In this document: one piece after another, positions 32,621-43,133 of the stretch | Position numbering within the stretch: position 1 is the stretch's first letter | Layout of the letters: each line of letters starts with the position of its first letter | Source of the DNA: Promethearchaeota archaeon | GTDB taxonomy: Archaea; Asgardarchaeota; Lokiarchaeia; Sigyniarchaeales; SOKP01 | Assembly: GCA_029838195.1 (NCBI GenBank) | Contig: JALGVJ010000042.1 | Span: 15,224-79,223, forward strand | Reading direction: 5' to 3' | DNA: 64,000 nt | Translations under genes and position numbers: made by a program | The notes under the pieces: model-generated | Database searches by the model: none | What the model was told of the DNA's origin: nothing | The model's input: the letters and a program-made list of their open reading frames with translations, nothing else

Positions 32621-33292
32621 ATGAGCTATGTTTTAGATACTATTATCGCGATTTCTAGCGGTTGTGTCAGTAATTTAGGGGTTCTTTTTCAAAAAAAAGT
32701 AATTAATGATTATAAAAACAATCCGGAATTTCTAAAAAATTTAATAAAAAGTCCAATTTAGATATTTGGACTCATATTGCAGCTTATCATAGGAGGAGTA
32801 ATTTTGTATATGATTGCTCAAGTATTTTTAAGCCCCACTCCCGTTCCGGGTTTAATGAGCGCCGGATTAATTGTTTTAGTGTTAGGATCAATAAAAATCA
32901 TTAAGGAAAAATTTCGAATAATAGAATTATTAGGTAGCATTCTCATGGGGATCGGTATATTAATGCTTAATTTAAGTAGACTATCCATTGACATGTCAGC
33001 GTACAACATTTTAGAGCTTGATTTTGTAATCAGAATAACGATTTTTACACTTTTAATATTTATCATCATATTCTCGATTCAATATATATCAAAGTATTAT
33101 ATAAAAGGGAGAGGAGTCTGTTTTCCCATAAAATCCGGATTTAGCTACTCCTTAGGTTCTATTTGGATTGGACCTATCATTACTTTTATAACTATTTATG
33201 ATGCATTAAATAATTTCGTAAAATTGCACTGCGTTTTAATTTCCGTGGAGGCATGTTTATATTTTCTAATAAATTTAAAGATTGCCCGTTGA
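32621..33292 (+). pseudogene. DMT/NIPA-like membrane transporter pseudogene
   Basis: GAGGAG then ATG at 32621; NLGVLFQKK..KSPI*IFG with TAG at 32759-32761 where Trp is expected; appears truncated. Confidence 0.75.
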
Positions 33293-33537
33293 AATTCCTT
33301 AAACGTGCTAAAAAAAGTATCATGGGTGACTTTTTTGCGTAAAAACTTCCAAAACCACTCCATTTAAAGTTTTAGCGTAATGCGCACGAGCATTATCCAA
33401 ATCAGTTCTGGTACTTATTAATCAAAAATATTCATTTAACGAATCAAAAAAAAAGTCATAAAAAAATTAAACTTCATTTATGATTTGTAAAAGCTATAAA
33501 GCATTTGGAGGAGATAATTCAAATACTACAAAATATG

Positions 33538-33897
33538 TTAATTTCCCTCTAAAATCATTAAAATATTTTCTTTAATTTCTTCTATATTTTGTATTTTCAA
33601 GGATTTTTTTGAGTTTGAAAGGTCTGATCTCATGGGTTTATTATAAGGTCTATTGTTTTTTTGGAGTAATTCCGTGATAATGAAAAAATTTAGGAGGTCC
33701 TGATTTGAAATTTCTCCGGATTGTTTTTTCTTTCCTAAAAGTTTTAAATTCTTGCCTTGATTCCCCCGTTTTTTTAATCTTAAGAACAAATATAATCCTA
33801 AACCGAGAACTATAATAATTAATGTTCCTACAGGATTTTCCTGATAATAAATGAAAAGTGCAATGAAGAGCATTACATAACAAAAGAATTTATCCAT
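33538..33897 (-). CDS. Hypothetical protein with two N-terminal TMs and a basic cytoplasmic tail
   Basis: 119-aa ORF with AGGTGA upstream. Confidence 0.65.
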   Translation of the reverse strand: MDKFFCYVMLFIALFIYYQENPVGTLIIIVLGLGLYLFLRLKKRGNQGKNLKLLGKKKQSGEISNQDLLNFFIITELLQKNNRPYNKPMRSDLSNSKKSLKIQNIEEIKENILMILEGN

Positions 33898-34303
33898 TTC
33901 TTAGATTTCACCTTTTTTAAAATTTTATTGAGTAAAGGTAAAAAGCCAAATATATTCTTTTTGTATTAGTAGATGTTTGTTTGATTTTTATTTTTAGAAG
34001 CATGTTTAAAATGAACTTTAAAATTCTTTCCATGATAAAAAATAGTTTTAAATATATTTAATAAAAAAACAAAAAATTCACGATAAATCAAAAAATTCAC
34101 GGATAGTACTTTTTTAAATAGCATCCATGATTTTCATGATCGTTAAATCGTTTTCACGATTTAGGAAATGAAAGGGATATTGTTAAAAGATAGATTTAAA
34201 TTCCGAGATCATTATCTCGAAATCCGATTAAAATCAGGTTTATCATGTACTCATCCATTTAGAAACAATTCAAGATAATTTTTAGTTAAAATGGTGGAAA
34301 AAA

Positions 34304-35269
34304 ATGATGGTTAAAAATAATAAAAAAATTATGAATTTCATGATCGATTCTCATTTAGAATGTGATCAATGCGGTTCTAAGAACATAATTGAAACTGAAG
34401 AAGGCTATGCATGTCGTGACTGTGGAATCGTGTTAGCGCTCCAACGAATAAAAAACTATTTACCATTTGATGAGAAACAGCTTCAAAATGCACCTCCAGG
34501 CTCAACTCAAATAGGCTTCAAACAAGAGCGCATGCAGTCTCCTCGAGTGCTACAATTCAATCGAATGGTAAAATTAAATGCAATAAAAAGAAGTGAGGAG
34601 AGAGCAATGAAAATTGCTGAAAAAGAAATCAGCCGGATTCTCGAAGCCTTACAAATCAATTTTGATGAGAGGGAAAAAAGAAATATCCTTGAACACGTGA
34701 TGAGAATAAGACAAAATATAAAAAAAGGTACTAAATATCGTAATTTGGAGAAACTGGTTCCCATTATTTTACACGTGTATTGCAAACTTCATAATATTTC
34801 TATTAATAGTAAAGAGTTATTAGAAATCTCGAACATCACTAAAAATGAATTTACTTCTTTTTTAAGACAAATTCATTATTATTTTCCAAGATATCAATCA
34901 AGAAATCGCCAAAAATATATTGCTCAAAAGATCTTAGAAGTCACCGAACATTTCAAGTTGGGAATGAATTTTTATCATCAAGCTATGAGGTTAATGAAGG
35001 TACTATGGAATTCAATTCAATTTACTAAAGATGATGTGATTGCAGGTATTGTTTGCTCAATTACAGTTCTTTGTAATTATAGAGATTGCGTGAAAGTAAA
35101 ATATATCTGTGATAAATTAAATATTCGCATGAGTACCATTCAAGCCCAAATTAAGAGGAACATCTTTGAAAAAATGAAAATCGACGGATTTACATCCCTC
35201 ATCCAATCTGCAGATCTCTTAAAAAATGTAATGAATGAAGCAGGGTACTTAAACGTTCATAAAAAATAA
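34304..35269 (+). CDS. Divergent transcription initiation factor IIB (TFB) paralogue
   Basis: Zn ribbon CDQCGS..YACRDCGIV, two cyclin-like repeats, C-terminal HTH ICDKLNIRMSTI. Confidence 0.78.
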   Translation: MMVKNNKKIMNFMIDSHLECDQCGSKNIIETEEGYACRDCGIVLALQRIKNYLPFDEKQLQNAPPGSTQIGFKQERMQSPRVLQFNRMVKLNAIKRSEERAMKIAEKEISRILEALQINFDEREKRNILEHVMRIRQNIKKGTKYRNLEKLVPIILHVYCKLHNISINSKELLEISNITKNEFTSFLRQIHYYFPRYQSRNRQKYIAQKILEVTEHFKLGMNFYHQAMRLMKVLWNSIQFTKDDVIAGIVCSITVLCNYRDCVKVKYICDKLNIRMSTIQAQIKRNIFEKMKIDGFTSLIQSADLLKNVMNEAGYLNVHKK

Positions 35270-35352
35270 ATTAATGATTTTTTCATTTATAAATTAAAAA
35301 TATTTTAATGTTTAATTGAAAAAAAAAACCAAAATCATCAAAATATCTTTTT

Positions 35353-35574
35353 TTACTGGTTAATTTCAAAATTGGTAAAATTAGAAGGATGATTATAATT
35401 ATTTTTAATTTTTAATTTTTGTCTTTTCTTTTGAAACTCCGGGCAAATTTGACATGTTTGGACTTTACAAAATAGAGGGTTTTTTGGTAATATACAACTA
35501 TCGTGAAAAGGACAATTTAATATTATATTTTCTATTTCCTTGTTCTCTATATTGCTCATGATTACGCTTACCAT
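35353..35574 (-). CDS. Small Cys-rich protein
   Basis: CPFHDSCILPK..FC..CQICPEF cluster. Confidence 0.6.
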   Translation of the reverse strand: MVSVIMSNIENKEIENIILNCPFHDSCILPKNPLFCKVQTCQICPEFQKKRQKLKIKNNYNHPSNFTNFEINQ

Positions 35575-36075
35575 TTTTGATTCAAGGTTTTATCTATTTC
35601 TTTAAGTGATTGCGCGATAAAAAAGTGAAGAATCTTTATTTTTACATTCATTTTTCGCTCTTAAAATGAATTTAACAATGATTAAATAATATTTTCATTT
35701 AGAATTACGATCATATTGTTTCAATTCTTTATTAAGAGCACAACTCTGAAGATTTATCGTTATTTCAAAATTAAAAAAGAATATAGAATATCTTTAAAAT
35801 AAATTCTTGTTCTTTAAATTTTAAATATCCAATGTTTCTATTAATATGATTCCAATAAGAGGAAGTCCAATGAATACCATCAAAATTCATGAATTCTCGT
35901 GAATTATTAACGCCCAAATTAAAGATTTGTTCATTCATGAAAGAAATTACCTTTCTTTTTATTTAAAGAAAAAATCCTCTTCTCTTTCTATTCTTAATTT
36001 TTTCTTTAAATAGAATGGAGGGATCTAATCTTCAAGAAAAAATTAATTAAAAATACATCAAATAGAGAAATTTAA

Positions 36076-37293
36076 ATGACAATAGAAACCCCCATCGAAA
36101 TTCCTCTCAATGATTTATACTTCAATTATATTGATACTCTTTCGAATAAGTTTCATTACATCACTCCTGATTTAGAGGAGGGAATGTCGCTCCCTTTTGA
36201 ACTAATTAAGCAAGGAGGGAAGCAAAAAATTAATCCCGTGATACAAGCTGCTCGACCAGAACATGCACGGGAAATTGTAAAAATTTATAAAGAGATTTAC
36301 CACGGAACTTATCCTTATAAAGAAATGGAGGATGAATTAGAAGTAAAACACATGATAGAACAAAATGACCATTCTTTTCTCATATTTAAAGATAATAAAG
36401 GTACTATAATGGGATGCTTCACGTTTGTTTTTAATTTTGAGGAGAAACGAGCTTATTTACGGGGCTATAATGTAAGGCCAAAATATCAAAAATATTTTGA
36501 TGTCATAAAGGGATTTCTAGGGTCTTTAATTGGCATACTGTATTTGTATCGAAATAAGATTCTTGTTTGGTATGCTGAGAATCGCACGGCTCATGCTGCG
36601 TCTCAATATTTTTGTCAAGTTGCGGGAGTGAAAAACGTGGCGTTTCTTCCTAATAAAGATATTTTCTTTCGAAAAATAGAGTCTGACATGTTGCATGTGG
36701 GATATAATAAAGACGCATTAACAACCTTTAGATCAAGGGAAATTCCTCAAATTATTCCAAGTATTATTAATTGTTACGCCTTTTCTAATAAAAGATATTC
36801 ATTAGGGAAAGCCGATATTGTCAATCCTAAACTCATTCTTAAAGATCAAGTGATGTGGGAGCTTAAAAGCAAGATCAATGTAAGAATTAAAAAGAAAAAG
36901 TTTAATTATCAGATAATTAAATTTACCCTCTCAAATACGGATAGTTATTTAAAATGTTTATATACACCCATGGTTAAAAATATTGAAAAAATAGAATATA
37001 ACATCGATAAATTGGAAGAATTACATGTATTTCTAACTGAATTAAATAAATTTTGTCGCTTAAAAAATATCCGTTATGCTGAATGCTTGGTTTCTGCTCA
37101 CGAACCTTCTCACCAACAAATTTTTTTAAAAGCAGGTTTTCAACCTCGCGGGTATATTCCTAGCTGGAAATATAATAGTGTAGAGAAAAAATTCACGGAT
37201 CATGTCATGTTTAATTGGTTTGTGCCACCCTTGAGTAAAAATATCCAACTTATTGAGGAGGGATGGGAATTATTGAAATATTTAAATTTATAA
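36076..37293 (+). CDS. Tandem GNAT-fold acetyltransferase-like protein
   Basis: YNVRPKYQ, AENRTAHAASQ and FLKAGFQPRGYIP motifs. Confidence 0.75.
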   Translation: MTIETPIEIPLNDLYFNYIDTLSNKFHYITPDLEEGMSLPFELIKQGGKQKINPVIQAARPEHAREIVKIYKEIYHGTYPYKEMEDELEVKHMIEQNDHSFLIFKDNKGTIMGCFTFVFNFEEKRAYLRGYNVRPKYQKYFDVIKGFLGSLIGILYLYRNKILVWYAENRTAHAASQYFCQVAGVKNVAFLPNKDIFFRKIESDMLHVGYNKDALTTFRSREIPQIIPSIINCYAFSNKRYSLGKADIVNPKLILKDQVMWELKSKINVRIKKKKFNYQIIKFTLSNTDSYLKCLYTPMVKNIEKIEYNIDKLEELHVFLTELNKFCRLKNIRYAECLVSAHEPSHQQIFLKAGFQPRGYIPSWKYNSVEKKFTDHVMFNWFVPPLSKNIQLIEEGWELLKYLNL

Positions 37294-37719
37294 ATGATTT
37301 TTCAAGTAAATCTTTTTAAATTGTATTGGTTATTCTCTTAGTCCTTGATTTTTTACTCTTAATTCTTTTGTTCTCGTTTAGATTAGTTTTATTCCAGAGA
37401 ATTTTTTTGATAATCTCTAAATTCATTCTTATAAATATCGGAACCACCTCTTAAATTGGTTTTATTAAATTTACCATGAATTACTTGTAATTTATCAATA
37501 AAAAGGGCAATATTTTCAGGGAAAAAGTAATGCGCCGAATAAATGAAATGATGAAATTCATTCGTATTGCTTTTTCTACAACTTGTTAAAGGGGAACTTT
37601 TTAATAAGAAGAAAAAAATCGATATCCTTCCATTTAATCCCTACATGTTTTTTCTTTATATAGTTCTAAATTATTTAAATGATAGAATTAGAAAATCAAT
37701 TAACTTTATTAATGCTCTC

Positions 37720-38763
37720 ATGACCAAGTTTCCCATAAAATTATTTAGCAGCTTTTTTTTAATTTCAATCTTATTTCTATTTAATATTTTTCCTTCCGTA
37801 CGAGCGAATTCTAATTATCTCATTAATGACGTGTTCACATTTCAAGAACCTTATCATGAATTAATTCATGGTCTCTCTTTAAATAAAGGAAAAGAATATA
37901 ACATCCATTTTGAAATTGTAAGTCCCCATAATTGCACCATGGCGATAAATCTTGCTGATCCTCAAGGTTCCATTTACGAGCTTTTTAGAATTAGTTTGAA
38001 TTTTCCAAACGGTTTCGGATTTTCGAAAGATTTCTCTCATGTAGCTGCGATGACCGGATTACATTATTTAATTGTAAAAGTTTGGACAGAAGAAAACATT
38101 AATATTCATTTATCCGTTGAAGATCGGGGGGATTTTAAATTCGAGAGCGAATTCACGAATAAAACCGTAGAAACAACAATCGAAAAGGTTCATGATGGAT
38201 ATTCACGCCAATTCACCCGTGATTTCAAAAAGAATTATTTATACGAATTTATCTTTAAAAGGGTTTCGCCCATTCGAGGAGATTTTAATATCTTTGCTAC
38301 AATTGAATTTTGGATTCAAACATCTCCTCCAAACCAAACTCGGTTTGTTCTATTGGCAAATGAAACTCTGCCGGATGTAATGCAGTTAATTTCCACCCAA
38401 TTTGGTACTGCCATCAACGATACATATACTTGTAATTATACCATTCATTCGAATATTGAACCTTTTAATTTAGTTCACGGAATCGTGGAAAAATATTTAA
38501 TCTCAGAAAATGCCGGGAGTGAGTCATCTCTAAAGAACGAAACGGAAGATTCTATTCCGGAAGAAAATGATTCTTCGAGTAATTCATCCTCTACCAATGA
38601 AACGGAACCTTCAACTAATTATTCCGCGAGATTGGGAGATAATTCATCCATTTTTGTTTCTCAGCAACAATTTCTTGGAACCCTTACTGTTGCGGGAGGA
38701 GGAACCTTGATCATCATGGTAATTTTTTATTCATATAAAAAAAAGAACAAGATTACCATTTAA
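37720..38763 (+). CDS. Secreted protein anchored by a C-terminal TM
   Basis: Signal peptide ending VRA from ATG 37720 (the track start at 37567 is probably too long); Ser/Glu/Asn linker, TM, KKKNK tail. Confidence 0.7.
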   Translation: MTKFPIKLFSSFFLISILFLFNIFPSVRANSNYLINDVFTFQEPYHELIHGLSLNKGKEYNIHFEIVSPHNCTMAINLADPQGSIYELFRISLNFPNGFGFSKDFSHVAAMTGLHYLIVKVWTEENINIHLSVEDRGDFKFESEFTNKTVETTIEKVHDGYSRQFTRDFKKNYLYEFIFKRVSPIRGDFNIFATIEFWIQTSPPNQTRFVLLANETLPDVMQLISTQFGTAINDTYTCNYTIHSNIEPFNLVHGIVEKYLISENAGSESSLKNETEDSIPEENDSSSNSSSTNETEPSTNYSARLGDNSSIFVSQQQFLGTLTVAGGGTLIIMVIFYSYKKKNKITI

Positions 38764-39119
38764 AATCGTTTTTTTTAACAAAATTCACTCGCATTCTTAA
38801 AAAATTTGAAATCGGATTTCCGTGTAAAACGTTTTAATTAAAAGTTTTTGTTTAAATAGTTTAATACCGAAGAAATTTTAAACATTTAAAATGTTTAGCC
38901 GCATGAAGAAAAAGAGATTGAATGAGAGTTCTTTTTTGAGCAGCTTGAATATCTCCGAATTATCTTGGCTTTCTCTTTTTAAGAATGATGAGTTAATTTT
39001 TAAAATCTTAACAGAGAAAAAGAAAAAACAAGGTTTAACAACTGAAATAGTTGGTTAAAAAATGAAAATAGCTTGTTGTAATTACAATTTAAAAAACCCA
39101 ATTAATTGAATCACTAATA

Positions 39120-39854
39120 TTGACCATGATTGTAATCGAATGTCAAAAAGAGGTTTCAAGTAGCCAAAAAAATAAAGCAGAGCGAATAAAAATGCTTTTT
39201 ATCAAAATCATCAAGGATTTCACGAGAGAATTTCCCGTTGATCTTCGAAAGAAAATTTTGCTTTATTCTTTGTATAAAGAAATTAAACCGCAGATAAAAC
39301 ATCATTTTACAGCCGGAAAACGCTTTTATAATTTAATTCTTGTATATATTTTAATGCTTTTGAAAAAACAACTTCAATGTTATGTAAATGATACGGATTG
39401 CGAAGAAGAAATTGTACTTGATTGGTTCATTTTACATGAAAATTATTATAAATTTTTTACTCAGCATTTTAAAAGAACCTTAAAAGGAAATTACAGGGAT
39501 TATGTATTAGAAATTGCAAGAAATAATTCATTCAAGAATTTCAGTAGAACAATTAAACTTTTTAACAGCCCCTTACCATTGGATAGATGCAAATTAAAAT
39601 TAAAAACTCTTAAAGAGATCTTGCCTACAACGATATATCTAAAAACTGCGGAAATCCTAACCGATTTAGAATCTAAAGGATATTCATTTAGAGGGAAAAA
39701 TGTATATAGTATATTAGCTGTTACACTATATTTCGTGGCACGTAAAAATAATATGTATATTAGTGAAGCAAAAGCTTGCAACCTCTTTTCCATTTCATCT
39801 AATACGTTCAAAAGACGAAAAAATGAAATAAAACAATATGTATTGCAAATGTAA
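39120..39854 (+). CDS. Protein with a single C-terminal TFIIB/cyclin-like repeat and HTH
   Basis: RGKNVYSILAVTLYFVARKNN..ISEAKACNLFSISSNTFKRRKNEI; no Zn ribbon. Confidence 0.65.
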   Translation: MTMIVIECQKEVSSSQKNKAERIKMLFIKIIKDFTREFPVDLRKKILLYSLYKEIKPQIKHHFTAGKRFYNLILVYILMLLKKQLQCYVNDTDCEEEIVLDWFILHENYYKFFTQHFKRTLKGNYRDYVLEIARNNSFKNFSRTIKLFNSPLPLDRCKLKLKTLKEILPTTIYLKTAEILTDLESKGYSFRGKNVYSILAVTLYFVARKNNMYISEAKACNLFSISSNTFKRRKNEIKQYVLQM

Positions 39855-40050
39855 TGAAAATGCTCAATTCTAATATTTTTATCCTATATTTTTTTAATTA
39901 ATCTCAAGTTCTGAAAAGATTATTATTTTGTCGAACTTATTGATTTTCCAATAATCTCTTTACTTGAATTATAAATAATAAATAACTAATTTTTGTCGTT
40001 TAATTATTAAAAAACAAACATTTAAATTAGTAAATTTCTGATTATAAATT

Positions 40051-40070
40051 AGGGGTTGTAAATCTCCCCT
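40051..40070. promoter_or_regulatory. Inverted repeat AGGGG-N10-CCCCT just downstream of a TATA-like TTATAAAT, upstream of hsp20
   Basis: Seen directly; SD AGGAGGT at 40104-40110. Confidence 0.35.
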
Positions 40071-40122
40071 TTACTATCCAATAAATTAAAATAGTATTTA
40101 AAAAGGAGGTAGAAAGTAATAA

Positions 40123-40722
40123 ATGACGGAAGTTAAAGATGATAAAAAGATTGAGATAAAACAAGAAGAGAATCCTGAAATGAAAAACGATGCTAAGACT
40201 AAAAAGAAATCTAAAACTAAGCAGAAAAGTAAAGACATTCAATTAAGAAGAAATAGAGCATTAACTTCATTGAGCCCCATGACTAGATTCTTTAATGAAA
40301 TAACTCGATTTTTTGATGAATATTTCTGGCGACCTTTTGATTTTTTCTTTCCCGAGGCTTTTGATTTAGCTTTAATGGAAGATAAACCCTTTTTCAGAAC
40401 GCCTTTGGCTAACATTGTAGAGAAGGGGGATAGGTATGAAATTAAAGCTGAACTTCCGGGATTGGACAAGGGAGATTTAGAAATTACTATTCATGATGGG
40501 ATGTTGGAGATTAAAGGTGAGAAAAAAGAAGAACATGAAGAGAAAAAGAAAGGATATTTAAGAAGAGAATACTCTAGTTCGAGCTATTTCCGGTGCTTTA
40601 AATTACCCGATAACATTGACGAAGACAAAATCGATGCTTCGCTAAAACAAGGGTTGTTAAAGATAACGCTTCCCAAAAAAGAAATCGAGCAAAAAGAAAA
40701 GAAAAAAATAAATGTGAAATGA
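40123..40722 (+). CDS. Hsp20/alpha-crystallin small heat shock protein
   Basis: AELPGLDK, LEIKGEK, YLRRE, FKLPD and ASLKQGLLKITLPK motifs; terminal INV. Confidence 0.95.
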   Translation: MTEVKDDKKIEIKQEENPEMKNDAKTKKKSKTKQKSKDIQLRRNRALTSLSPMTRFFNEITRFFDEYFWRPFDFFFPEAFDLALMEDKPFFRTPLANIVEKGDRYEIKAELPGLDKGDLEITIHDGMLEIKGEKKEEHEEKKKGYLRREYSSSSYFRCFKLPDNIDEDKIDASLKQGLLKITLPKKEIEQKEKKKINVK

Positions 40723-40767
40723 TTTTTTTTCTATCTTTATTAATTTAGATTATTAATCGTATAGAAA

Positions 40768-41340
40768 TCAATATATTTTATAAATTGATTGGTCAACACT
40801 CTTTTTAGGAACATGCATTGTACCGGATTCATCTTTCCAATACTTAAAAGAATCAATATATGGTTCAACTATTGATTCTTCATCAGGGTAACCTAAACTA
40901 ATGACTTGTTTAATTTCATATTGCTCTGGAATGTGTAATAATTCACGTATTTTATTTCTCTCGATAGCTCCCATCCAACAGCTACCTAATCCATAATAAG
41001 TTGCTCCTAGTAGAATATTTTCCACGGAAGCTCCTACATCGAAATCTGCAAATTTCTTGATGTTTGTATTATTTAATACGATGATATAAGCGGTGGGCCT
41101 TCTATTTTCCTCAGGAGTACGTTGATTTCGGGGAAGGGCAGAGGCCCAATTCAAGAAGGGAAATAATTGTTCCCTCATTTTGGCATCTGTAATTATAATA
41201 TATTCTAAGCTCTGAACATTCATTCCGGCGGGTGCTAACCGTGCAAAATCGATTAATTCCTTTAAAATCTCTAAAGAAATTTCTTTTTGAGTAAATCTTC
41301 GAATGGTCCTTCTTTTTTGAATTACTGCTTTAAAATCCAT
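40768..41340 (-). CDS. Nitroreductase family protein
   Basis: KRRTIRRF, APAGMNVQ, GLGSCWMG and ISLGYP motifs. Confidence 0.92.
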   Translation of the reverse strand: MDFKAVIQKRRTIRRFTQKEISLEILKELIDFARLAPAGMNVQSLEYIIITDAKMREQLFPFLNWASALPRNQRTPEENRRPTAYIIVLNNTNIKKFADFDVGASVENILLGATYYGLGSCWMGAIERNKIRELLHIPEQYEIKQVISLGYPDEESIVEPYIDSFKYWKDESGTMHVPKKSVDQSIYKIY

Positions 41341-41560
41341 TTTTCCTCTTTCTTGTTTACTTTATAATGGATAGATACATTGATAACATGTTTTTAATTA
41401 ATCAATGAAATATTATTCAAAATCCTTTTTAAATGACAAGAAAATCAAGGAGAATTATAAAATTTATTAAACCTTAAAATGAATTAGATATAATTCTATT
41501 ATTTTAGAATAAATTTCGATTAAATATTGATTTTTATCCTTATATGATTAGGTATTAGAT

Positions 41561-41923
41561 TCATGACTTGGCTTCTCTTTCTAAATAAGATTCAAGTTTC
41601 TCATATTTCAACTTGTAAATCGAAATCCACGTTTTAAATTCCTCAGGAGAGATTAAATGAATTTCAAATACATGACTAAGTGGTAATCCCGCAGTTTCCT
41701 CTAAATTTGCCAGGATCGCAGCTCTCTCAGTTAGACTATTCGGCACATCCGCTACAATTAGAATATCAATATCACTTCCCCCTACGAGTTTTCCTTCTAA
41801 AATGCTTCCAAATATATAGGATTTCGATTGAGGCAACAATTTAACGCGTGCTTCTTCGATTTTCTTTAAATACTCATTCCTGTGCTTCATCATTTCCATT
41901 CTATTTTTCATCATTTCTAGCAC
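41561..41923 (-). CDS. Minimal nucleotidyltransferase (MNT antitoxin-type)
   Basis: YIFGS..GSDIDILI..FEIHL; overlaps the HEPN gene by 23 nt. Confidence 0.88.
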   Translation of the reverse strand: MLEMMKNRMEMMKHRNEYLKKIEEARVKLLPQSKSYIFGSILEGKLVGGSDIDILIVADVPNSLTERAAILANLEETAGLPLSHVFEIHLISPEEFKTWISIYKLKYEKLESYLEREAKS

Positions 41924-42293
41924 GATTTACTGCCTCCATGATTTTTTCCATTATTTTTATTGCATTGAATGCATCTTCTCTCGTATATATATTATAAATA
42001 TATCTTGAATTTAAATAAGAGGACTCGAGAAGTAGCAAATCATTACGATTGTATTTTAAATTATCATCATTTGTTAGATTATATAGTAATGTTATTAATT
42101 TTCGAATTGAGTGCCCTCGAGGCATTTCTCCCGTGAGTTCTAATATTCTTGCTCTTAAAAAAAGTTGAACAGCTTGTTCTGCCATGAAACACGCTAAATC
42201 CCAATCTTCTTCTTTAATTCTTTCTTTTGCTACTAATGAGAAATTTTTGGCTCGCTGGAAAAAGAGATCTACCTCATTTTTATGCATTTTCAT
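41901..42293 (-). CDS. HEPN domain protein
   Basis: LACFMAEQAVQLFLRA, PRGHSI and YLNSRY motifs. Confidence 0.88.
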   Translation of the reverse strand: MKMHKNEVDLFFQRAKNFSLVAKERIKEEDWDLACFMAEQAVQLFLRARILELTGEMPRGHSIRKLITLLYNLTNDDNLKYNRNDLLLLESSYLNSRYIYNIYTREDAFNAIKIMEKIMEAVNRARNDEK

Positions 42294-42545
42294 TCCTCGT
42301 TATCAATTTAGTAAGAACGAAACCCTTCAATTAACTCTATTTATATTATTGCCAATTCGGATTGTTGAAATGAAGTCAATCTCTTAATATAAATATTTCA
42401 ATTCATAATATAGAATTTACTCATTCGAATTTTGATTGGAAACTAAAATTTCATGTAGATAAAGAGAATAAGAAATGGGGTATTGTTCGTGAAACTAAAC
42501 TTTCACGTTTAAACATCCATGTTTCGGTGATATTTGAATCAAGAG

Positions 42546-42705
42546 TGGGAAAGGAGGGATATATTCCTTCCAAAAGCTTGTTTTGGAAAATTGAACCCCC
42601 GACCTCTTGGTCTCTCGCTGAAAATCAATGACTTTCGGTTCCGAACCAAGAATCATTTCAGGAATCTTTAGAATGATAATTCTTACCAAGCTAGACTACT
42701 TTCCC
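42546..42705 (-). tRNA. trnP: tRNA-Pro(CGG) with three BHB introns (42656-42683, 42612-42639, 42561-42590); CCA not encoded
   Basis: Spliced 74-mer GGGAAAG TA GTCT AGCTTGGTA TGAT T CTTGG TTCGGAA CCAAG AGGTC GGGGG TTCAAAT CCCTC CTTTCCC A folds as a cloverleaf; each intron forms a bulge-helix-bulge. Confidence 0.92.
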
Positions 42706-42726
42706 ACGGATTTAAGATAGGAATTC

Positions 42727-43017
42727 TTAATTATCTTTGATCTTTTCTAAGATTGATAAAATTCGATAAATGGTGGTTCTCGAGTGAAAAGGAATGTTAG
42801 GATCTAACGTTAAGTCATCAACCATGTACATCACGTTTGAAGAGAGGATACCAGGGGTTTCATCTCTCCGGGATAATTCCTCAATGGCATTTTGGGCAAT
42901 ACGTTTAATATTTCTTGGGACGGAGCGGTCTTTAAGCATTCCTTCTAATAAGGTTATTACATTGGCGAAAGCTTTTTCTACTTCTTCACTAAATTTAATC
43001 TCTTCAGTCATTCTCAT
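42727..43017 (-). CDS. UPF0147 family protein
   Basis: DRSVPRNIKR and DPNIPFHSRT motifs. Confidence 0.9.
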   Translation of the reverse strand: MRMTEEIKFSEEVEKAFANVITLLEGMLKDRSVPRNIKRIAQNAIEELSRRDETPGILSSNVMYMVDDLTLDPNIPFHSRTTIYRILSILEKIKDN

Positions 43018-43133
43018 ACTTACCCCTTTTTTTAATTATTTGGAAAGAATTGCTTTTGAAGTTGAAAAAGTTAAGATATAGAGAAATAATATTGTGAAAC
43101 AAAATAATCCAATAAATTTATTTTTTTTGAATT

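Follow-up and report, generated by a model that had tools for sequence, protein, structure and literature searches.

tRNAs with three introns at non-canonical sites are classic in Thermoproteales (PMC4090602). One described case of proline isotype is tRNA-Pro(UGG) of Pyrobaculum islandicum, whose introns lie at 25/26, 37/38 and 56/57 (described by Sugahara et al. 2007, cited after PMC4090602). Aeropyrum pernix pre-tRNA-Thr2(UGU) has an intron with a bulge-helix-bulge (BHB) motif in the D-loop, and its cleavage needs the lysine of the Crenarchaea-specific loop (CSL) of the splicing endonuclease EndA; it is this loop that enables the enzyme to cut D-loop and relaxed motifs (Hirata 2011, PMC3241643). 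An (alpha-beta)2 EndA with CSL has already been reported in Asgard archaea (Kaneta 2018, PMC5829648). Asgard tRNA genes are given as 92-95% intron-bearing, with several introns each, in Valentin-Alvarado 2024 (PMC11291895), and a 2026 census preprint (10.64898/2026.10.13.758758) describes up to five inserts per gene and D-arm inserts that are systematically missed.

We describe a tRNA-Pro(CGG) gene in which one canonical and two non-canonical introns are predicted. It comes from a Loki-type member of the Promethearchaeia, which bears out the Asgard-like host proposed in an earlier, sequence-only reading of the window (the whole 64-kb stretch of DNA that was analysed). The genome (G000) comprises 4.5 Mb at 33.5% G+C, with an estimated completeness of 96.6% and an estimated contamination of 7.9%. 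The locus is very probably a single functional tRNA-Pro(CGG) gene whose three BHB introns are spliced as predicted in Table 1. Splicing is predicted from sequence anatomy, orthologue junctions, covariation, exon conservation and the presence of enzyme genes.

Table 1. Parts of the tRNA-Pro(CGG) gene and adjacent features, in window coordinates
Feature	Coordinates	Strand	Description
Whole tRNA-Pro(CGG) gene	42546..42705	-	160 nt; CCA not encoded; from ARAGORN on the spliced form and blind enumeration
Exon 1 (tRNA nt 1-21)	42684..42705	-	Acceptor 5' strand, U8 A9, D-stem 5' strand, D-loop AGCUUGGUA
Predicted intron 1, D-arm, 21/22	42656..42683	-	28 nt; BHB of relaxed form, with complete H (4/4), 5-bp h' and a single-pair outer helix
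Exon 2 (tRNA nt 22-37)	42640..42655	-	D-stem 3' strand, anticodon stem 5' strand, U33, CGG, A37
Predicted intron 2, canonical, 37/38	42612..42639	-	28 nt; full hBHBh'
Exon 3 (tRNA nt 38-58)	42591..42611	-	Anticodon stem 3' strand, variable loop AGGUC, T-stem 5' strand, T-loop UUCAA
Predicted intron 3, T-loop, 58/59	42561..42590	-	30 nt; full hBHBh', 9-bp inner hairpin, register-shifted T stem outside
Exon 4 (tRNA nt 59-73)	42546..42560	-	A59 U60, T-stem 3' strand, acceptor 3' strand, A73
Spurious 64-aa ORF over the tRNA gene	42495..42689	-	Separate from the feature; could mislead gene callers
UPF0147 family gene, upstream neighbour	42727..43017	-	PF03685; stop codon precedes the tRNA by 21 nt; 81% identical to its G001 counterpart

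The minus strand across the gene is letter for letter the transcription given in the sequence-only reading. With the three introns deleted, 74 nt remain, which ARAGORN calls as tRNA-Pro(cgg). The predicted 74-mer reads GGUAUGAUUC across the first junction, UUCGGAACC across the second and UUCAAAUCC across the third. It has an acceptor stem of 7 bp, anticodon and T stems of 5 bp each, the T-loop TTCAAAT and the discriminator A73. Identity elements of tRNA-Pro are the anticodon NGG (G35, G36), G1-C72 and A73. The spliced form has all of these within a class I cloverleaf, and its body nearly matches those of the host's Pro(UGG) and Pro(GGG) genes. A split or permuted tRNA gene was considered and is ruled out, the four exons being colinear within 160 nt.

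In its unspliced form the gene escapes standard tools. ARAGORN called no tRNA anywhere in the 64-kb window, and Rfam gave no match at gathering thresholds, with only noise at E<=10 on positions 42400-42850. Two proposals of the sequence-only reading hold: that the 160 nt are a 74-nt tRNA-Pro(CGG) cloverleaf plus introns at 21/22, 37/38 and 58/59, which the ARAGORN call on the spliced form and the orthologue junctions described below support, and that default scans can miss such a gene, as both ARAGORN and Rfam do.

The BHB motifs were laid out as an outer helix (h), a 4-bp central helix (H), a 3-nt bulge and an inner helix (h'), mirrored on the 3' side. For all three introns the central helix pairs at four of four positions (G.U allowed), the 3-nt bulges are correctly oriented, and at least one of h and h' is present; introns 2 and 3 have both. 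The T-loop intron (58/59) combines H = GUUC/GAAU with bulges AA^U and AU^A, an inner stem of 9 bp and an outer helix of 4 bp (GGGG/UCCC), which is the T stem offset by one register. At the canonical site (37/38), H = UUCG/CGAG and the bulges are GA^A and AG^A; the inner stem spans nine positions including one C.A mismatch, and the anticodon stem supplies an outer helix of 7 bp. The D-arm intron (21/22) has H = UUGG/CUGA, complete with two G.U pairs, bulges UA^A and AA^U, and an inner stem GAAUU/GAUUC of 5 bp. Its outer helix is a single base pair (C16-G23), leaving a relaxed HBh' short of hBHBh'. The sequence-only reading had listed three correctly oriented BHBs; this stands for the central helices and the bulges and is amended for intron 1, which is of the relaxed form.

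Two junctions carry a one-base ambiguity relative to the mature sequence, between two A residues at 21/22 and between 37/38 and 38/39 at the anticodon loop. The choice within those ambiguities is made solely by BHB geometry. The minimum free energy (MFE) fold of the precursor (-49.6 kcal/mol, z-score -2.8) lacks the BHBs, and the structure with all three BHBs has -34.5 kcal/mol, 15 kcal/mol above it. Since nearest-neighbour energies penalise bulges, the MFE result is uninformative on BHBs.

Some other deletions were tried and rejected. Placing intron 2 at gene offsets 62-90 would give the anticodon AGA and ties on cloverleaf score; it fails on its weaker BHB and on the orthologues, all of which have UUCGGAA. 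The D-arm deletions 42690-42662 and 42676-42648 retain an ARAGORN match and either lose the conserved GG of the D-loop or mismatch the orthologues.

The junctions can be read from relatives. DNA searches for tRNA-Pro covered 41 genomes (the host and 40 relatives) and 135 genomes of the family, the host included. The comparison set comprises 18 tRNA-Pro genes from 17 genomes (16 of the family plus G032, of another family of the order), Pro(CGG) of the host among them. Introns are found at the same three sites in G001, of the same genus, and at the D-arm and T-loop sites in G012. The D-arm intron alone is present in G008 and G010, and likewise in G015, G022, G023, G048 and G150 (UGG isoacceptor). 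The anticodon-loop intron alone is present in G109, G142 and G116, and the T-loop intron alone at a second locus of G150. G054 and G019 have an intron at another site, ~26/27, and G099 has none. Homologous introns of 28-30 nt occupy the 37/38 site in G001, G054, G109, G142, G116 and G032, and the T-loop intron recurs with identical site and length in G001, G012 and G150.

Where tRNA-Pro genes are uninterrupted they read GCTTGGTATGATTC in the D-arm, GGTTCGGAACCAAG at the anticodon and GGGGTTCAAATCCC or GGGGTTCAAATCC in the T-loop, the same as the predicted exon-exon junctions. The D-arm sequence GCTTGGTATGAT is unbroken in orthologues and in Pro(UGG) and Pro(GGG) of the host, and orthologues that lack the anticodon-loop intron have GGTTCGGAACCAAG running across the 37/38 junction. 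The junction sequences are those of intron-free orthologues and paralogues that Rfam scores at 49-58 bits. Rfam recognised orthologues with no or one intron at 29-58 bits and missed the three-intron genes.

The D-arm motif was followed across the genes that share it. Its central helix is complete (4/4) in all ten. The inner helix varies as GAAU/AUUC, AAGA/UCUU, GAAG/CUUC, GAACACAA/UUGUGUUC and AAAAAUUA/UAAUUUUU. Over the ten genomes, 97.5% of the helix cells are paired against 88% after shuffling (0 of 500 shuffles as high), with compensatory changes at three of the four h' pairs and nine compensatory cells; when the helix partners were slid against each other, pairing was at most 71%. Compared with the G001 gene, identity is 72/74 in exons (97%) and 62/87 in introns (71%).

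An intron of ~29-30 nt at ~26/27 rather than 21/22 was seen in L106 (G054), in L017 (G019) and in the host's own Pro(UGG) (G000:C19:82902-83004). Because some genes use ~26/27, the tRNA-Pro isoacceptor family has at least four intron sites. These introns are lineage-variable insertions, zero to three per gene at four or more sites, in keeping with the recurrent gains and losses already known from tRNA genes of Asgard archaea.

To our knowledge G37, the m1G37 site, is near-universal in tRNA-Pro. The spliced Pro(CGG) has the anticodon loop UUCGGAA, with A37 (window position 42640) in its place. Of the Pro(CGG) orthologues in the family, nearly all have A37 (L004, L005, L007, L017, L106, L109, L111, L113, L115). 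It is no artefact of junction choice, since orthologues without an anticodon-loop intron also have it. Pro(UGG) and Pro(GGG) of the host retain G37. A separate peculiarity was noted in the only intron-free tRNA-Pro found, that of G099 (L112:478-551, Rfam 58 bits), whose anticodon loop UCCGGGA has C33 instead of the universal U33, together with G37.

BHB-like motifs of a loose kind abound in this AT-rich DNA (46 candidates within 261 nt, ~1 per 6 nt), so that a BHB motif by itself is weak evidence, and a cloverleaf might in principle arise by chance from convenient deletions in AT-rich intergenic DNA. The probability that this explains the locus is negligible. From 353 relaxed BHB-like candidates in the 160-nt gene, all sets of up to three deletions were enumerated blind. 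With the sets ordered first on cloverleaf score and next on BHB quality, the described triple ranked first, one anticodon-loop alternative being tied on cloverleaf score. The best triple-deletion cloverleaf scored 27.5 here, whereas the same search over 9,840 randomly chosen intergenic stretches of 160 nt from the host genome peaked at 20.5; orthologues in many genomes already refute a chance origin. A lesser departure would keep the gene and shift one or more junctions, for example to a 29-nt D-arm intron, which would leave 73 nt and a fully paired D stem of 4 bp (Watson-Crick/G.U), or to a cut at 38/39. Under looser settings the cloverleaf score does favour the 29-nt deletion (29.0 vs 27.5), and base identities at junctions 1 and 2 permit a 1-nt shift that leaves the product unchanged or barely changed. 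We nevertheless regard a misplaced junction as quite unlikely. The BHB of the 29-nt variant is poor (H 3/4, inner helix 1 bp), and U22 is present, as GGTATGATTC, in every uninterrupted orthologue and in both uninterrupted paralogues. Only the 21/22 register gives a complete central helix, in 10 of 10 genes with the D-arm intron. It is very unlikely that the gene is decaying or non-functional, its inserts never removed and CCG read by tRNA-Pro(UGG). Such decoding could in principle occur by wobble, and the weak D-arm motif would suit decay; against this, exons are far better conserved than introns between congeners, the helices are kept by compensatory changes, and the cloverleaf is intact. The gene is also the sole Pro(CGG) gene of a bin that is close to complete by estimate, and most tRNA genes of the genome are similarly built. 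A functional gene with the junctions of Table 1 remains our reading.

The sequence-only reading had also proposed that the introns may hide the tRNA from integrating elements, persisting because they break up its sequence as an attachment site. The idea is a published hypothesis (Randau and Soll 2008; PMC4090602), and it could draw on the end of G001 synteny at the tRNA 3' end, beyond which a HEPN/nucleotidyltransferase pair follows. It fares poorly here and we consider it unlikely. The 15-mer of the 3' exon has no second copy, and no att-like repeat, within the 64-kb window; none of the eleven downstream ORFs scanned (32777-42293) contains an integrase domain; and orthologues with no or one intron occur within the same family. 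The census preprint (10.64898/2026.10.13.758758) likewise reports no general link between inserts and mobile elements.

As to the neighbourhood itself, a PEP-utilising enzyme and the UPF0147 protein upstream are syntenic with G001 at ~80% amino-acid identity. Synteny with G001 (L117, G001:C29:1-6078) stops exactly at the tRNA 3' end, and the G001 genes downstream of the tRNA match contig C26 of the host genome. In the host, 41561-42293 and the 3' flank of the tRNA contain the HEPN/nucleotidyltransferase pair along with genes for a nitroreductase and an Hsp20 protein.

The sequence-only reading expected that such introns need a broad-specificity splicing endonuclease, and the enzymes to be expected are encoded in the genome: an EndA alpha with the CSL Lys/Arg, a second paralogue without the catalytic His, and RtcB. 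EndA alpha (G000:C1, L101:1459-2067:-, 202 aa) has the A. pernix catalytic subunit 3P1Z_B as its best solved relative (E = 6e-36). Its VYKK, EHSH and VRKK align with the catalytic Tyr, His and Lys residues, and INKPR aligns with VEKPR, which contains K44 and R46 of the CSL (PMC3241643). The second full-length paralogue (G000:C8, L102:1201-1800:+, 199 aa) has both EndA domains, the catalytic His position not being conserved. We also noted a truncated third copy of 106 aa (C53, L103:1492-1812) that closely resembles the C8 protein and may represent a pseudogene, a duplication or foreign DNA contaminating the bin. The D-arm motif, with two G.U pairs in H and a 1-bp outer helix, is dependent on the putative broad-specificity EndA.

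By analogy with characterised archaeal systems, processing may proceed as follows. A precursor of ~160 nt would be transcribed, and each short insert would fold with adjacent exon bases into a BHB at 21/22, 37/38 and 58/59. The bulges would be cleaved by EndA, whose catalytic subunit bears the CSL, and RtcB would then ligate the four exons into the 74-nt tRNA, to which CCA would be added. Transcription, cleavage, ligation and any order of removal are all inferred from that analogy. The sequencing runs that contain window positions 42300-43100 are DNA metagenomes only, from hydrothermal vent and sediment samples. A sigma-70 promoter and terminator scan gave nothing useful, a bacterial-type model being inapplicable to archaea.

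The host's other tRNA genes, whose survey had been proposed along with the sequence-only reading, are widely interrupted as well. ARAGORN and Rfam found ~25 to 32 tRNAs in the whole genome. Our census used T-arm and acceptor-stem complementarity as an anchor, followed by enumeration of BHB deletions, and resolved 39 genes; it is incomplete and includes low-scoring solutions, C23:46691, C58:1192 and C1:36075 among them. At least 31 of the 39 are interrupted, with 44 introns altogether (~1.1 per resolved gene): eight genes have no intron, 20 have one, nine have two and two have three. The introns lie in the anticodon loop (17), the D-arm (11), the T-arm (10) and elsewhere (6), and nine tRNA genes have a T-loop intron of 30-31 nt at 58/59 or 59/60. 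Since several expected anticodons are still missing, more hidden tRNA genes are likely. Pro(CGG) was found as a sole copy in the bin, where CCG makes up 14% of proline codons.

The other three-intron gene is tRNA-Phe(GAA) (C38:44014-44171, minus strand, 158 nt). It is interrupted in the D-arm (26 nt), at 37/38 (27 nt) and at 59/60 (31 nt), and each intron has H 4/4. A candidate second Pro(CGG) at G000:C92:66770-66876, offered by the intron option of ARAGORN, was rejected; on removal of a 32-nt D-arm intron it is really tRNA-Arg(TCG). In this genome, intron-aware defaults can thus assign the wrong anticodon. Among 39 introns there is no signal that any was copied from one tRNA gene to another, the best pairwise identity being 0.73 against 0.71 for shuffled sequences. 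This agrees with the census preprint (10.64898/2026.10.13.758758), which finds no copying between genes.

A bolder reading is that the three inserts were acquired stepwise and recently from a single process, still active, which seeds BHB-competent mini-introns of ~28-31 nt genome-wide, and that the conserved A37 is a lineage-wide departure from m1G37. We offer this tentatively, as possible and on balance doubtful. If it were true, the tRNA-Pro(CGG) alleles of the family, which range from no intron to three and use four or more sites, would serve as a natural time series of how EndA-type introns arrive.

The novelty implied in the sequence-only reading was overstated, since multi-intron, non-canonical Asgard tRNAs and the matching EndA are published (PMC5829648, PMC11291895, 10.64898/2026.10.13.758758). 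The general picture is unchanged: intron-crowded Asgard tRNA genes, missed D-arm introns and the EndA type were already in print. The available text of PMC11291895 and of the preprint has no description of the Pro(CGG) locus. What the locus adds is a well-documented three-intron tRNA gene from a Loki-type class, with an orthologue series of zero to three introns that fixes every junction by comparison alone. Its practical value is in annotation, as ARAGORN and Rfam under-call tRNAs in such genomes. With relaxed D-arm, canonical and T-loop motifs in one transcript, it also offers a handy substrate set for Asgard EndA biochemistry.

With the Atabeyarchaeia and Freyarchaeia (PMC11291895) and the cases of the census preprint, the gene shares introns of ~20-30 nt that lie in the D-arm, the anticodon loop and the T-arm. 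Genes with several introns, missed D-arm introns, repeated lineage-specific gains and two EndA paralogues are likewise common to the host and the Asgard cases published in those texts. The latter centre on members of the Jordiarchaeia and Atabeyarchaeia that average ~2.2 inserts per gene, with a maximum of five, whereas this member of the Promethearchaeia has ~1.1 introns per resolved gene and three introns mark the upper end (2 of 39). The alignment of the host's EndA alpha with the A. pernix catalytic subunit runs the whole length of the protein and includes K44 and R46; the A. pernix tRNA has one intron, proven biochemically, and ours three predicted ones. The parallel with P. islandicum tRNA-Pro (PMC4090602) extends to one canonical and two non-canonical BHB introns, on the D-arm side and in the T-arm, with colinear exons, and to an EndA with CSL, which is (alpha-beta)2 in P. 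islandicum and in our host comprises the CSL-bearing alpha and a His-less paralogue as candidate beta subunit. The P. islandicum gene belongs to a thermophile of the Thermoproteota, reads UGG and is interrupted at 25/26 and 56/57 beside the canonical site, whereas the present one belongs to an Asgard archaeon, reads CGG and has its non-canonical introns at 21/22 and 58/59.
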